Made by a program: the position numbers and the translations under genes. A stretch of 43,069 nucleotides of DNA. Source: Candidatus Iainarchaeum sp. GTDB taxonomy: Archaea; Iainarchaeota; Iainarchaeia; Iainarchaeales; GCA-2688035. This document shows positions 1 to 42,696 of this stretch, piece by piece (within the stretch, counting starts at the first letter, position 1; each line of letters begins with the position of its first letter). The notes under the pieces are model-generated. The model ran no database searches and was not told where the DNA came from. It worked only from the letters and a program-made list of their open reading frames with translations. The stretch is taken from NCBI GenBank assembly GCA_020053055.1, contig JAGVNX010000040.1, positions 1-43,069 on the forward strand. Reading direction: 5' to 3'.

Positions 1-47
1 AAAAGAAAAGCCTTGGGAAAAAAAGTTTTTTGCTTTGCAAAAAACTG
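1..47 (+). repeat. Window-truncated partial copy of the short interspersed repeat family (see 18617-18705, 27123-27210, 25483-25520)
   Basis: gaaaagccttgggaaaaa...ttgctttgcaaaa resembles gaaaagccctgggaaaag...ttgctttgcaaaag at 27191-27245. By-eye alignment only. Confidence 0.35.
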
Positions 48-18553: not shown

Positions 18554-18615
18554 CAAACTGCAAAAACGCGGTTTCCTGCAGGGGTTCCGGAGCGGTCAAA
18601 CGGACGGGACTTAAG

Positions 18616-18747
18616 AGGCCTTTTCTTGAACCTTGTAAAACCAAAAGGTTTTACGAAGCCTCGCAAAGCTTTGCTTTGCAAGGAAGAAAAACCCTGGGAA
18701 AAAAGAGTTCCCAAAATGCAATTATTGTGGACAAAAGGCCGGGAGCA
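18616..18747 (+). other. tRNA-Leu intron (near-canonical BHB)
   Basis: Inner helix GGCCUUUU 18617-18624 / AAAAGGCC 18733-18740. Central helix CUUA/GGAG has 3 pairs plus an A-G mismatch. Bulges are AG|A and CA|A. One extra unpaired G lies at 18741. Confidence 0.8.
18617..18705 (+). repeat. Repeat-family copy inside the tRNA-Leu intron
   Basis: About 85% identical by eye to 27123-27210. The 33-nt block gcctcgcaaagctttgctttgcaaggaagaaaa (18658-18690) is identical to 27163-27195. Confidence 0.8.
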
Positions 18748-18885
18748 ATCCCGTGGCTTAGTGCCTTCGGGGGTTCGAATCCTCCCCTCTGCACTGCCCT
18801 TTCTTTTCTTTGGAAAAGAAAAGTGCAAGCATCCTGAACTGGATGACAAACAAAAAAAATGGTTTGAAAATTTGAAGTGATTTGA

Positions 18886-24517: not shown

Positions 24518-24584
24518 CACAAAAGCAAATGCCTTTGGGAACCACAAATTTTGAGTTAATCTTAAATACAAAAACTGCCTGTTT

Positions 24585-25130
24585 TTGTGGATGATTTCCA
24601 AGAAAAAAATTGTTGCCATGATAATTGTTGTGCTGGCTGCTGCAAGCCTCGTCTATTTTTATTTTGAAGGCGAGAAAGAGAAACAGGAAGTAATATATTT
24701 TGCAGAAGGCGGCAATGAAGGCATGGCAGTTATAATTGAAGTGCCATTAGTAACAGCATATAGAATTGGGAACCCAGATCTTACAGAGCAGGAAATAAAT
24801 GAGGCATTCAAGCCTTGCGTATCAAGTGCAGAATTGTGCGTTGAAAAATTTTCTCCAAACTTAGAGATAAAGCAAAGCTGCCTTTCTGCAGTAAAAAGCA
24901 TCAAGGCATTCACACAAAACATAAAAAATGAAAATTCAGTACTTTTGGGGCTTAATCTTACAATTCTAAATATTCAACTTGCTTTTTGCCCAGAAATCAC
25001 TACAAAAGAAGAGTTGTTAACATCAAATAGCTGCATGGACAAAATTGATTTGTATGGTTCAAAAAAAGCGCAAGAAGAAACTGATGCCTGCTTCCAAAGA
25101 ATCAACGAGTACGCAAAAAGCAAAGAATGA
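24585..25130 (+). CDS. Hypothetical membrane-anchored, Cys-containing protein
   Basis: 181-aa ORF with an N-terminal TM (IVAMIIVVLAAASLVYFYF). No recognisable domain. Confidence 0.55.
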   Translation: MWMISKKKIVAMIIVVLAAASLVYFYFEGEKEKQEVIYFAEGGNEGMAVIIEVPLVTAYRIGNPDLTEQEINEAFKPCVSSAELCVEKFSPNLEIKQSCLSAVKSIKAFTQNIKNENSVLLGLNLTILNIQLAFCPEITTKEELLTSNSCMDKIDLYGSKKAQEETDACFQRINEYAKSKE

Positions 25131-25196
25131 TTTTGCAATTCAAAAACAAAAAAAATAAAATTAAATAATTGCATTTCAAATCAGGAGATGAAAAGA

Positions 25197-25440
25197 ATGC
25201 CAAGATATGTATCTGGCCCCTTAAGAGTAAGCCGCGGTTCCCGAAACCCAATTGTCCGGCGCGGAAAGCTGCTTGGAACTTTGCGAAGCCCAAAATACCG
25301 CGAACGAAAACGCACGCGGGAAGCAACTTTCTGGACTGAAAAAAGAACAGAAGGACATTGGGACGCCTGCGCAAGTCCTGAACAAAAATTAGCAAAAATA
25401 GGGGCTTGCACTTTCTTCGAGTTTAGGCAGAATTTTTGCT
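25197..25440. ncRNA. Candidate structured RNA of unassigned family (SRP RNA or reduced RNase P RNA are the obvious candidates)
   Basis: An island of about 50% GC in an AT-rich genome with only implausible ORFs. It contains a dense set of helices: 25264-25274/25321-25331 (11 bp) enclosing hairpins 25275-25291 and 25298-25319, plus 25199-25217, 25236-25248 and 25352-25379. A TATA-like ttaaataa lies at 25161-25168. Confidence 0.45.
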
Positions 25441-25482
25441 TGTGAGCAAAGCGAACCTGCATTTTTCAAAGAAAAATGCTTT

Positions 25483-25520
25483 CTTTTCCAGGGTTTTCCT
25501 TGCAAGGCAAAGAAAAGCCT
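25483..25520 (-). repeat. Partial repeat-family copy (reverse orientation)
   Basis: The reverse complement ctttgccttgcaaggaaaaccctggaaaag resembles ctttgctttgcaaggaagaaaagccctgggaaaag. Confidence 0.45.
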
Positions 25521-25560: not shown

Positions 25561-25803
25561 ATGCCTACTGCGATTGTGAAGCTTGATGAAAATGCCAACA
25601 GGGTAATTAACATAGTCAAAGCCAAATATGGTTTGAATGACAAAAGCGAAGCCATAAACAAAATGGCTGCAGACTACGAAGAAGAACTGCTTGAACCCGA
25701 ACTTAGGCCGGAATACATAGAAAAACTCAGGAAAATCGAGAAAGAAAAAACCATTAAAATCAGGGATATTGACAGCTATTTCAAGCAACTTCGCAAGAGA
25801 TGA
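25561..25803 (+). CDS. Type II antitoxin candidate (DUF2683-like)
   Basis: 80 aa; IVKLDENANRVINIVKAKYGLNDKSEAINKM resembles small archaeal antitoxins as I recall them. It has a 4-nt ATGA overlap with the downstream toxin ORF. Confidence 0.6.
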   Translation: MPTAIVKLDENANRVINIVKAKYGLNDKSEAINKMAADYEEELLEPELRPEYIEKLRKIEKEKTIKIRDIDSYFKQLRKR

Positions 25804-26078
25804 TTTCATTGGCATTCTTTTTGGAAACCAGAAAACATGTTGACAGAATATTTGAAAAAATAGCAAAGAAAGACCCAGTACAAGAAGAAACAGTAAAAAG
25901 AAAGATAAAAGAAATTCTTGAAAACCCCTACAGATTCAAACCACTAAAAAAACCAATGCAAGGAAAAAGAAGGGTCCATACTTACGGGCCTTTTGTGCTT
26001 GTATATTCAATCAACGAAAAAGAAAAAAAAGTAACAATAGAAGACTACGACCATCACGACAAAATATACAAGAAATAA
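25800..26078 (+). CDS. RelE/ParE-superfamily toxin candidate
   Basis: 92 aa with the pattern ...ILENPYRFKPLKKPMQGKRRVHTYGPFVLVYSINEKEKKVTIEDYDHHDKIY, typical of RelE/YoeB-like toxins. Confidence 0.65.
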   Translation: MISLAFFLETRKHVDRIFEKIAKKDPVQEETVKRKIKEILENPYRFKPLKKPMQGKRRVHTYGPFVLVYSINEKEKKVTIEDYDHHDKIYKK

Positions 26079-26397
26079 TTATAACATTGGCTGGACGCAA
26101 ACAAGCCTGACAATGATAGTGGGGCATTTGCAATAAGGATAATGGGCGCGTTTATACTGCCTGCAATTGCCAGATTTTTTCTTTAAAAATGCAGGGGAAA
26201 ACAGGCGTTTCATTTGCTACCAGCAGATGCGACAGAGCCAAAATTCGTCAGCTTTTTAAATATTCCCAACTCTAATTAATCTATATAATAAACAATCCTA
26301 AGTTATACATAATTAAATTGACATAGCTTGTTTTTCACCTATGAAAAATGAAGCGCTGCCACCAAACGGCAGTTACGCGCTTATGGAGGTGCTTGTA

Positions 26398-26760: not shown

Positions 26761-26769
26761 AAAAAAAGC

Positions 26770-26828
26770 CTTTTGAAGCGCTCAAAACTTTTGAAGCACT
26801 CGGCTTTTGCCTCGCTTTCAAAAGTTTT
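26770..26828 (+). terminator. Hairpin plus T tract after L7Ae
   Basis: cttttgaagcg 26770-26780 pairs with cgctttcaaaag 26813-26824 (one bulge), followed by tttt. Confidence 0.3.
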
Positions 26829-26883
26829 ATCAAAAACAATTCGCTTCCAAAAGCCTTGGAAAAATAAAAAAAAGGTGGATTGA

Positions 26884-27090
26884 ATGGAACAGGGAACACC
26901 AGCTGAAATCGTTGAAATAATGAAGAGAACAGGAGTTCACGGAGAAATTATCCAGATAATGTGCAGAATCCTTGACGGGCCAGAAAAAGGGCGGGTCAAA
27001 AGGCGAAACATCAAAGGCAATGTGCAAAAAGGAGATGTTGTGGTTCTTTTGAGCACTGAAAGAGAAGCCAAGGAAATCAAAGCCAGGTAA
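26884..27090 (+). CDS. rps28e: 30S ribosomal protein eS28
   Basis: 68 aa; PAEIVEIMKRTGVHGEIIQIMCRILDGPEKGRVKRRNIKGNVQKGDVV is S28e-like. Confidence 0.92.
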   Translation: MEQGTPAEIVEIMKRTGVHGEIIQIMCRILDGPEKGRVKRRNIKGNVQKGDVVVLLSTEREAKEIKAR

Positions 27091-27104: not shown

Positions 27105-27121
27105 AATGGTCAATTGCAGTT
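27105..27121 (+). repeat. Direct repeat 1: copy of the L24e start (aATGGTCAATTGCAGTT)
   Basis: Identical at 16 of 17 positions to 27378-27394, and exactly 273 nt upstream of it. Confidence 0.85.
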
Positions 27122-27377
27122 CAGCCTTTTCTTGGACCATGCAAAACCAAAAAGGTTGCGTGGCCTCGCAAAGCTTTGCTTTGCAAGGAAGAAAAGCCCT
27201 GGGAAAAGAACAATTTGCTAGCGCAAATTGGTTGCTTTGCAAAAGCCTTTTCTTGGAAAGAACATTACAAAAGCTTCGCTTTTATGATGCCTCAAAAAAC
27301 ATTTGGCTTTTTAAGGAAGCTTGGGAAAAAACAATTTGCTAACACAAATTGATTTGGCTCCCAAAAGAAGGTGGAAC
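27122..27377 (+). repeat. 256-nt non-coding insertion (MITE-like or intron-derived) between S28e and L24e
   Basis: Bounded by imperfect inverted termini ccttttcttgg 27125-27135 / ccaaaagaagg 27361-27371. Positions 27123-27210 are homologous to the tRNA-Leu intron. An internal ~33-nt direct repeat occurs at 27199-27231 and 27320-27352. Track ORF 27106-27342 is judged non-coding. Confidence 0.7.
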
Positions 27378-27394
27378 AATGGTTAATTGCAGTT
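27378..27394 (+). repeat. Direct repeat 2: the functional L24e start (aATGGTTAATTGCAGTT)
   Basis: See 27105-27121. Confidence 0.85.
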
Positions 27395-42628: not shown

Positions 42629-42696
42629 AAAAAAACCTTTTCTTAAAAAGAAAAGCCTTGAGGAAGCATTAAAAACTGGGCTCTAAAAAAACAGGA

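Follow-up and report, generated by a model that had tools for sequence, protein, structure and literature searches.

Nested Hairpin Repeats in a tRNA-Leu Intron and at Ribosomal Protein Genes of a DPANN Archaeon

Why should sequence from the inside of a tRNA intron recur between two ribosomal protein genes? In the 43,069-nt stretch of archaeal DNA analyzed here (the window), a 33-mer (GCCTCGCAAAGCTTTGCTTTGCAAGGAAGAAAA) occurs exactly twice, once in the intron of tRNA-Leu(UAA) (18658-18690) and once in the spacer between the genes for S28e and L24e (27163-27195). It had no match in 100 shuffles, and the chance expectation for an exact identity of these two segments is 0. Similarity around the block spans ~90 nt: the 65-nt ungapped pair that contains it is 85% identical, and blastn aligned the two copies over 45 nt at 97.8% identity and 29 nt at 89.7% identity. 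An earlier, sequence-only reading of the window had pointed out the perfect block and an overall identity of about 85%, both of which were borne out. It had proposed a mobile, MITE-like element, an intron-derived element, a small structured RNA family, or a reused regulatory module. Close protein relatives of the window are labeled Candidatus Ainarchaeum or Diapherotrites, and its host is a DPANN archaeon of the Iainarchaeota (Diapherotrites) type. In the following sections, L numbers designate the loci with which the window was compared.

Anatomy and distribution of the repeat family

The family consists of two nested parts, a backbone of ~60 to 75 nt and a double-hairpin module of ~57 nt, H1-H2. 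The backbone comprises a hairpin, H0 (AGCCTTTTCTT..AAGAAAAGCC), a linker (CYTGGGAAAAGAA), and a further hairpin, H3. The H0 stem (AGCCUUUUCUU..AAGAAAAGCC) includes a conserved C.C mismatch, the linker (CYUGGGAAAAGAA) is single stranded, and H3 is always a clean stem of 5 to 9 bp with a sequence that is unrelated between copies. The ends of the module are inverted repeats (CCUUGYAAA...UUUGCAAGG; as terminal inverted repeats in DNA, CCTTGYAAA / TTTGCAAGG), and the 3' terminus of the backbone is not clear-cut. H1 directly precedes H2 in every match to the H2 core, and the folds gave the same architecture in all copies. Two positions of the module were distinguished. In type 1 copies, it lies in the H0 loop (the window intron, unit A of the window, L007 upstream of L3, and L010); in type 2 copies, it lies between GCCU and UGGGAAAA (in DNA, GCCT / TGGGAAAA), as in L007 (position 2358), L011, L012, and L005. 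Backbone copies were located by nhmmer with a backbone hidden Markov model (HMM), since a fuzzy linker pattern (up to 2 mismatches) produced too much noise on the purine-rich coding strand; when the backbone was aligned with MAFFT, the register was lost around the variable-length hairpins.

The shared 33-nt block corresponds to H2 and the adjoining 3' arm of H0. The hairpin described earlier at 18659-18683 (CCUCGCAAAGC/GCUUUGCAAGG, C.A mismatch included) was confirmed, and no other part of the family is so well conserved; it is invariant across genomes of 36 to 58% GC. Covariation, proposed as a check on the hairpins, was found in H1, in which 96% of cells were paired, 7 of 10 pairs had changed on both sides, and none of 500 shuffles was as good; in slid registers of the H1 alignment, pairing dropped to 26 to 49%. 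H2 is near-invariant, and some diverged copies carry compensatory changes in it (L007 2358-2426 and unit B of the window). The other hairpin of the sequence-only reading, CCUUUU...AAAAGG, is an unsupported pairing: GGCCUUUUCUU (18617-18627) pairs instead with AAGAAAAACC (18684-18693), and the first internal hairpin of the intron copy is the covarying CCUUGUAAAACC/GGUUUUACGAAG (18631-18658). A noncanonical pair is conserved at the fourth position from the base of H0 (C.C), H1 (U.G), and H2 (C.A). The near-invariance of H2, together with these fixed mismatches, suggests that H2 may be the recognition site of whatever protein mobilizes or binds the element. Because the module is pseudo-symmetric (outer half-sites CCTTGCAAA, inner half-sites CCTCGCAAA), the H1-H2 model scores on the opposite strand, too.

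The backbone HMM (at least six matches in the window and many in relatives) and the module model together revealed at least seven copies or fragments of the family in 43 kb, most of them co-oriented with transcription (Table 1). An edge-cut partial copy had been suspected at the start of the window, and it is indeed the 3' part of a module-bearing copy; its full ortholog lies upstream of L3 in the metagenome-assembled genome (MAG) JAQTNI (L007 3321-3430). The reverse-strand copy placed at 25483-25520 also exists, but it is longer than first described and not partial: it is a complete backbone without H1-H2, with syntenic counterparts in L001, L020, L024, and L011 (as an array in L011). The L7Ae-S28e spacer, which is degenerate in the window, has a clear H0 in L021 and none in L020 or L022. 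Units A and B, which stand in tandem between S28e and L24e, have almost identical H3 hairpins.

Table 1. Positions of repeat copies, their parts, and associated features in the window
Feature	Positions	Strand	Basis
3' part of module-bearing copy upstream of the L3 operon, edge-cut	1..45	+	nhmmer, E 8e-9
tRNA-Leu(UAA) exon 1	18578..18615	+	ARAGORN on spliced sequence; 100% identical in L002
tRNA-Leu intron, 132 nt, canonical 37/38 position	18616..18747	+	spliced-sequence ARAGORN, ortholog series, splice-substrate folds
Intron H0 5' arm, GGCCTTTTCTT	18617..18627	+	folds; alternative pairing with 18733-18740 closes the intron
Intron H1, covarying	18631..18658	+	alignment, pair counts
Intron H2, near-invariant core, C.A mismatch	18659..18683	+	33-mer match, pattern scans, alignment
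Intron H0 3' arm and linker, CTGGGAAAAAAG	18684..18705	+	nhmmer, sequence comparison
GGAGCA/A, ancestral 3' half of bulge-helix-bulge motif, outside the repeat	18742..18748	+	ortholog series; mini-substrate folds
tRNA-Leu(UAA) exon 2	18748..18793	+	ARAGORN on spliced sequence; L002
Complete backbone (H0, linker, H3) without module, beside the L7Ae promoter region	25459..25520	-	nhmmer, E 2e-10; fold
Degenerate backbone-like sequence, L7Ae-S28e spacer	26767..26865	+	weak nhmmer match, 26849-26866
Decayed upstream copy of L24e start, ATGGTCAATTGCAGTT, left half of target duplication	27106..27121	+	direct reading; intact duplications in L021, L022
Unit A, backbone with module in H0 loop	27123..27243	+	HMM, fold; absent from L001
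Unit A H1	27137..27163	+	
Unit A H2	27164..27188	+	
Unit A linker	27199..27211	+	
Unit A H3	27212..27229	+	
Unit B, backbone with diverged module in H0 3' arm	27244..27350	+	covariance model, 31.6 bits
Unit B H1	27263..27289	+	
Unit B H2	27290..27316	+	
Unit B linker	27317..27332	+	
Unit B H3	27333..27350	+	
Functional Shine-Dalgarno sequence (AAGGTGG) and true L24e start, right half of target duplication	27368..27394	+	
H0-only fragment between two minus-strand genes	42634..42666	+	nhmmer, E 7e-5

Beyond the window, the H2 core (CTCGCAAAGCNNNGCTTTGCAAGG) was scanned against one genome per species and against JGI metagenomes. The exact pattern was found at 7 loci in 5 archaeal MAGs and on 4 metagenome contigs. 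Two of these MAGs are labeled Ca. Iainarchaeum/Ainarchaeum and three only "archaeon." Viral contigs gave no matches to the H2 core; a viral contig that matched the linker pattern (L025) was dismissed as a chance hit, which lies inside a coding region without hairpins. A covariance model of H1-H2 recovered all copies with the H2 pattern as well as diverged ones (L007 2358-2426, L010 3440-3509, and window 27258-27329), and in L011, a single module was found among ~3.5 tandem units. Copies sampled without bias were promoter proximal, on the 3' sides of genes, between convergent genes, beside tRNAs (several copies), or within an open reading frame (ORF); among contexts so heterogeneous, the idea of a reused regulatory module gained no specific support. 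Rfam yielded no matches in the whole window at gathering thresholds and chance-level matches only in E-value mode (three subregions). Literature searches on the core sequence, on DPANN or Iainarchaeum repeats, and on repeats in tRNA introns found no description of the family.

Two of the loci deserve separate mention. In MAG CAZXIC, a full type 2 copy (L012 387-542) lies in frame in an 847-codon ORF rich in K, E, A, and P, in which no Pfam domain was detected; either translation runs through the repeat, as it does in Rickettsia palindromic elements, or the ORF was assigned a wrong start. In MAG JAQTNI, the L3-L4 spacer holds a clean H0 with linker directly ahead of the L4 start (L007 4661-4697). 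The corresponding spacer of the window (~1288-1352) has only a degenerate, possibly inverted trace, and the two loci thus differ in the presence of the unit.

Differences were also seen between close strains. Strain contig L001 is 98.5% identical to the window over 10.8 kb aligned, and its S28e-L24e spacer contains one backbone unit and no module; unit A and the module of unit B are both missing. Compared with L001, the window carries unit A as an additional tandem unit, and both of its units contain a module, with the insertion point in H0 differing between the two; this may reflect gain in the window or loss in L001. Within genomes, the repeats have multiplied and built tandem arrays, and close strains differ in which copies they possess.

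The surroundings of the copy beside L7Ae are variable in other respects. The GluRS-L7Ae interval is a hot spot, occupied by a DUF2683/ParE-type toxin-antitoxin pair between housekeeping genes in the window (25561-26078), by HicA in L022, and by other genes in L021 and L024. Within it, a GC-rich, noncoding-looking stretch (25190-25420) is present in L001 and absent from the much shorter spacer of JAQTNI (L020). Rfam gave no match to this stretch, even in permissive mode, and it may be a structured RNA of no known family or the remnant of an inserted segment. A 603-bp segment (24530-25132) with a 181-amino-acid ORF, in which no Pfam domain was found, is absent from L001. Directly before the L7Ae ATG (26398), a highly conserved leader (~26325-26397; CTTGTTTTTCACCTATGAAAAATGAAGCGCTGCC...GGCAGT.A.GCGCTTATGGAGGTG) is shared with L020, L021, L022, and L024. 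Its hairpin, which includes the Shine-Dalgarno (SD) sequence, looks like an autoregulatory leader of the K-turn type, and the ORF called from 26341 is probably an artifact of this leader.

Growth of the tRNA-Leu intron and insertion at the L24e start

The tRNA-Leu gene of the window went unreported by ARAGORN in default mode and by Rfam at gathering thresholds. After removal of the intron, ARAGORN recognized a clean, normal 84-nt tRNA-Leu(taa). Within the intron, one backbone with an H1-H2 module comes first, then a diverged tail, and finally the ancestral half of the 3' splice site. Using L18e homologues as anchors, we collected the orthologous loci; in all relatives compared, tRNA-Leu(UAA) lies between rpoD and L18e, and its intron is always at position 37/38. 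Where L18e is 56% (L018) or 66% (L016 and L017) identical to that of the window, the intron is plain and only 37 or 32 nt long, respectively. At 79% identity (L015), it measures 104 nt and contains a backbone (H0, linker, and H3) without H1-H2; at 84% (L014), it measures 125 nt, again with a backbone without H1-H2. In the window and in strain contig L002 (100%), it measures 132 nt, and the backbone carries H1-H2 in the H0 loop. Given the plain short introns at the same site and the stepwise appearance of the repeat, we conclude that the repeat invaded a preexisting intron and that the intron was not its source.

The ortholog series also accounts for the splice site. The intron end GGAGCA/A descends from the UAAGCA/A of the short introns, whose UAAG makes up the central helix of the bulge-helix-bulge motif by base pairing with CUUA in the anticodon loop. 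Folds of the window sequence show a relaxed motif: a 3' bulge of 3 nt persists, with a central helix of 3 bp, and a 4x2 internal loop contains the 5' site. Given so relaxed a motif, splicing of the window tRNA-Leu is an inference. Broad-specificity splicing endonucleases are known in other ultrasmall archaea (PMC3239211). Between the window and L002, exons and flanks are identical, and all 4 differences fall in the intron, at loops or junctions or in G.U-compatible positions. The intron copy is ~90% identical (by eye, over ~89 nt) to the L007 copy upstream of L3 and is thus closer to it than to unit A of its own genome. An intron-encoded C/D box sRNA, as in the tRNA-Trp of Euryarchaeota, was considered and rejected; direct reading of the intron (18616-18747) for the C box (RUGAUGA) and the D box (CUGA) found neither TGATGA nor CTGA, and no Rfam C/D-box family came near threshold.

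A corresponding series was obtained for the S28e-L24e spacer with L7Ae homologues as anchors. In the window, S28e occupies 26884-27090, and the true start of L24e is the ATG at 27379 (MVNCSFCG). The site is empty in L024, with 6 nt from the S28e stop to the L24e ATG. In L021, a 73-nt backbone follows codon 9 of L24e and stands between the two copies of a perfect direct repeat of 39 nt (AGAAGGTGGAATAATGGTTAATTGCAGTTTTTGCGGAAC), which comprises the SD sequence, the start codon, and 26 nt of coding sequence. L022 has the same site, with a repeat of 26 perfect and ~15 imperfect nt; in L020, the upstream repeat and the 5' arm of H0 are deleted; and in the window and L001, the upstream repeat has decayed to 16 nt (ATGGTCAATTGCAGTT). 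Survival of L24e would be explained by the ~40-nt target duplication, which would have restored, on the downstream side of the insert, the SD sequence, the start codon, and the first 9 codons. The units invaded both a tRNA-Leu intron that was already there, and short, and the opening codons of L24e. The resemblance that the sequence-only reading saw between the 3' ends of the two elements joins nonhomologous sequences: GGAGCAA is the ancestral splice-site half, and AAGGTGGAACAATG is L24e's own ribosome-binding site and start, within the target duplication, and not the 3' end of a repeat. The possibility that the L24e insert is an mRNA intron was rejected, as splicing at the tRNA-equivalent points breaks the reading frame.

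The L24e loci showed two further peculiarities. In L021 and L022, the halves of the duplication are identical within each genome, and the 5' sequence of L24e differs at 5 positions between the genomes, which requires gene conversion, separate insertions into one site, or an unrecognized function or constraint. In the window, a spurious ORF of 78 codons begins at the decayed copy of the L24e start and runs through both repeat units (27106-27342). Read in the same frame, other copies repeatedly yield a pseudo-peptide (..EASQSFALQG..) that might lead gene callers and protein clustering astray.

Nature and spread of the repeats

On balance, we think it probable, though well short of certain, that the repeats are a lineage-restricted, selfish, REP/MITE-like family of nested hairpins for which the intron is a safe harbor. 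The mobile, MITE-like option among those first proposed is thereby favored, owing to the many copies, their presence or absence among strains and species, the nested insertions, and the target duplications at two insertions. The units would be selfish insertions at the DNA level, or copies spread by gene conversion between copies, and would persist only where they are harmless: in intergenic DNA, in an intron that is spliced out, and at a gene start rebuilt by duplication. The intron would be harmless because the tRNA splicing endonuclease removes everything between the splice sites. As H2 is near-invariant, the 33-nt identity of the two window copies would reflect a family-wide constraint, possibly helped by gene conversion. 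A local segmental duplication between the two sites was rejected, because other genomes conserve the block and the two copies differ in H1 sequence and in their flanks.

The mode of insertion is unusual. Target duplications are long and unequal: a 13-nt direct repeat (ACCGAAACAATAT) brackets the type 1 copy in a divergent promoter region of L010, and those of L021 and L022 measure ~26 to 41 nt. Such lengths are foreign to the classical mechanisms of MITEs and REPs. Around the H1-H2 module itself, no clear duplication was evident, and neither a transposase nor a RAYT-like gene nor another autonomous partner was seen in the ~43-kb window and ~190 kb of related loci. A more specific proposal, which we regard as speculative and on present evidence doubtful, is that H1-H2, and perhaps the backbone, are moved by a hairpin- or structure-specific machinery of DPANN archaea that would insert into or beside hairpins with duplications of 13 to ~40 bp, introns and duplicated gene starts serving as refuges. 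If true, such machinery would define a new class of archaeal nonautonomous mobile element and a mechanism for tRNA intron growth.

Covariation of the hairpins makes a structured RNA family a live rival. According to this account, the host has placed a functional RNA module in ribosomal protein leaders and spacers, in tRNA flanks, and in the intron as a protein-binding, processing, or stability element. The strong compensatory changes in H1 speak for it, as do the noncanonical pairs at a fixed position in three hairpins, the constancy of H2 irrespective of genomic GC content, the predominant co-orientation of the window copies with transcription, and the proximity of several copies to tRNAs. 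H3, perfect yet unrelated in sequence between copies, is more easily explained by structural selection than by neutral selfish DNA, and the diverged yet structure-preserving module of unit B could reflect long residence under structural selection, as for a functional RNA. However, no Rfam family matches, and the contexts are mixed; among them are an antisense copy conserved upstream of the L7Ae promoter, another that is flanked by convergent genes, and one embedded in an ORF. Copies are dispensable between strains that are 98.5% identical, the pseudo-symmetry of the module and its scores on both strands are as expected of a DNA palindrome, and the target duplications indicate DNA insertion events. 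We therefore consider a functional RNA rather unlikely as the explanation of the family.

Passive spread appears improbable to us. In this view, ancient palindromic spacers would have multiplied without any transposition machinery of their own, through tandem duplication, strand slippage, and gene conversion between existing copies alone. The tandem units of the window (A and B, with their near-identical H3) and of L011 fit such a process, and so does the concerted evolution of the L24e duplication halves; H1-H2 of the intron could have come by conversion from a type 1 copy, as its ~90% match to the L007 copy upstream of L3 would allow. Gene conversion cannot, however, found the first copy at a new site, and new sites did arise, namely, in the L24e coding sequence, in the intron, in the promoter region of L010 (with its 13-nt duplication), and at different H0 positions for the modules of units A and B. 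That the tRNA-Leu intron itself was the source, spreading as proposed for intron transposition in Thermoproteales, is hardly credible. The 5' end of the element coincides with intron nucleotide 2, its ends (GGCCUUUU/AAAAGGCC) pair like an intron-closing helix, and transposition of archaeal tRNA introns has been proposed before (Fujishima 2010, reviewed in PMC4090602). Yet this option is contradicted by the short, unrelated intron (plain, 32 to 37 nt) that relatives have at the same position, by the stepwise arrival of the repeat, and by the copies outside introns, which are without any splice motif. Furthermore, excision of the L24e insert at the equivalent points would break the frame, the family occurs in ordinary intergenic DNA of distant MAGs, and the apparent similarity of the 3' ends is coincidental.

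Relation to known repeats and significance

Viewed as a selfish family, the repeats most invite comparison with the REP/BIME/REPIN sequences of bacteria and their RAYT Y1 transposases. Both are short, imperfect, extragenic palindromes with doublets of related hairpins (here, H1-H2), strain-variable presence, mosaic tandem arrays (here, L011 and window units A and B), conserved short linkers, and conserved in-stem mismatches. The present family differs from them in its archaeal (DPANN) host, in its nesting, and in the long duplications at two insertions, whereas REPs make none. Family alignments contain no GTAG-like 5' tetranucleotide, and no Y1 transposase (RAYT) was seen in the window and related loci. 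Rickettsia palindromic elements (RPEs), reportedly described by Ogata and colleagues in 2000, are likewise selfish palindromes that are tolerated in essential genes, including RNA genes, owing to where they land. Their sequences are unrelated to those of the family described here, whose host is an archaeon and whose tolerance would come from intron removal in the RNA gene and from the target duplication in L24e, not from in-frame read-through. Integration of the casposon/Cas1 type involves a target duplication of 14 to 15 bp, terminal inverted repeats, and a casposase gene; it was considered solely on account of the unusual length of the duplications, which here are of 13 nt and 26 to 41 nt, and no Cas1 was seen in the window and related loci. 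The palindromic repeats of green-algal organelles also inflate introns. They are unrelated to the present family in host, sequence, and scale; PMC2670323 describes such short repeats as abundant in green-algal organelle DNA (for example, in Volvox) and as regarded as selfish.

Prokaryotic MITEs, such as Correia elements and the SM elements of Sulfolobus (reviewed in PMC10969869), share with the family a small size, absence of coding capacity, multiple copies (at least 7 in 43 kb here), and insertion polymorphism, seen here as empty and filled sites. Folding into hairpins when transcribed is a further point in common; as to the terminal inverted repeats of MITEs, the H1-H2 module ends in inverted repeats, and the backbone has no clear 3' terminus. 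The family departs from MITEs in that its target duplications (13 nt; 26 to 41 nt) are neither of fixed length nor short, in that no autonomous insertion sequence with matching termini was seen in the window and related loci, and in that it is modular and nested, with a module of only ~57 nt. Two archaeal precedents concern tRNA introns. In Thermoproteales (PMC4090602), an archaeal tRNA intron shares sequence with other loci, as here, but there introns move between tRNA genes, and the present repeat is not itself an intron. In the Caldiarchaeum model of intron gain (PMC3293823), a 1.9-kb integrase-type element creates the intron, whereas here a preexisting canonical intron was enlarged stepwise by tiny repeats; direct repeats of the target gene flank the insertion there and likewise flank that in L24e. 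We rejected the view that the repeat is an archaeal bulge-helix-bulge intron: only the tRNA copy lies between splice sites, which are ancestral, and the copies in L24e and upstream of L3 and L7Ae are without the motif. The family would join the small palindromic mobile repeats and be unusual among them in its nesting, its long duplications, its colonization of an intron, and its DPANN host.

No description of small mobile repeats in DPANN archaea was found in the literature searched. For annotation, the consequences are practical: the tRNA-Leu gene is missed by default scans, the start of L24e is extended or misplaced, and spurious ORFs are called through the repeats. An essential ribosomal protein gene survived insertion into its first codons, its ribosome-binding site and start codon probably having been rebuilt by a ~40-nt duplication. 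The family would offer a handle toward the enzymes that move small repeats in DPANN archaea. It also provides a dated, stepwise natural example of an archaeal tRNA intron that grew from 32 to 132 nt by the capture of probably selfish hairpin repeats, a route that differs from the gain of introns through transposition or integrase-type elements.
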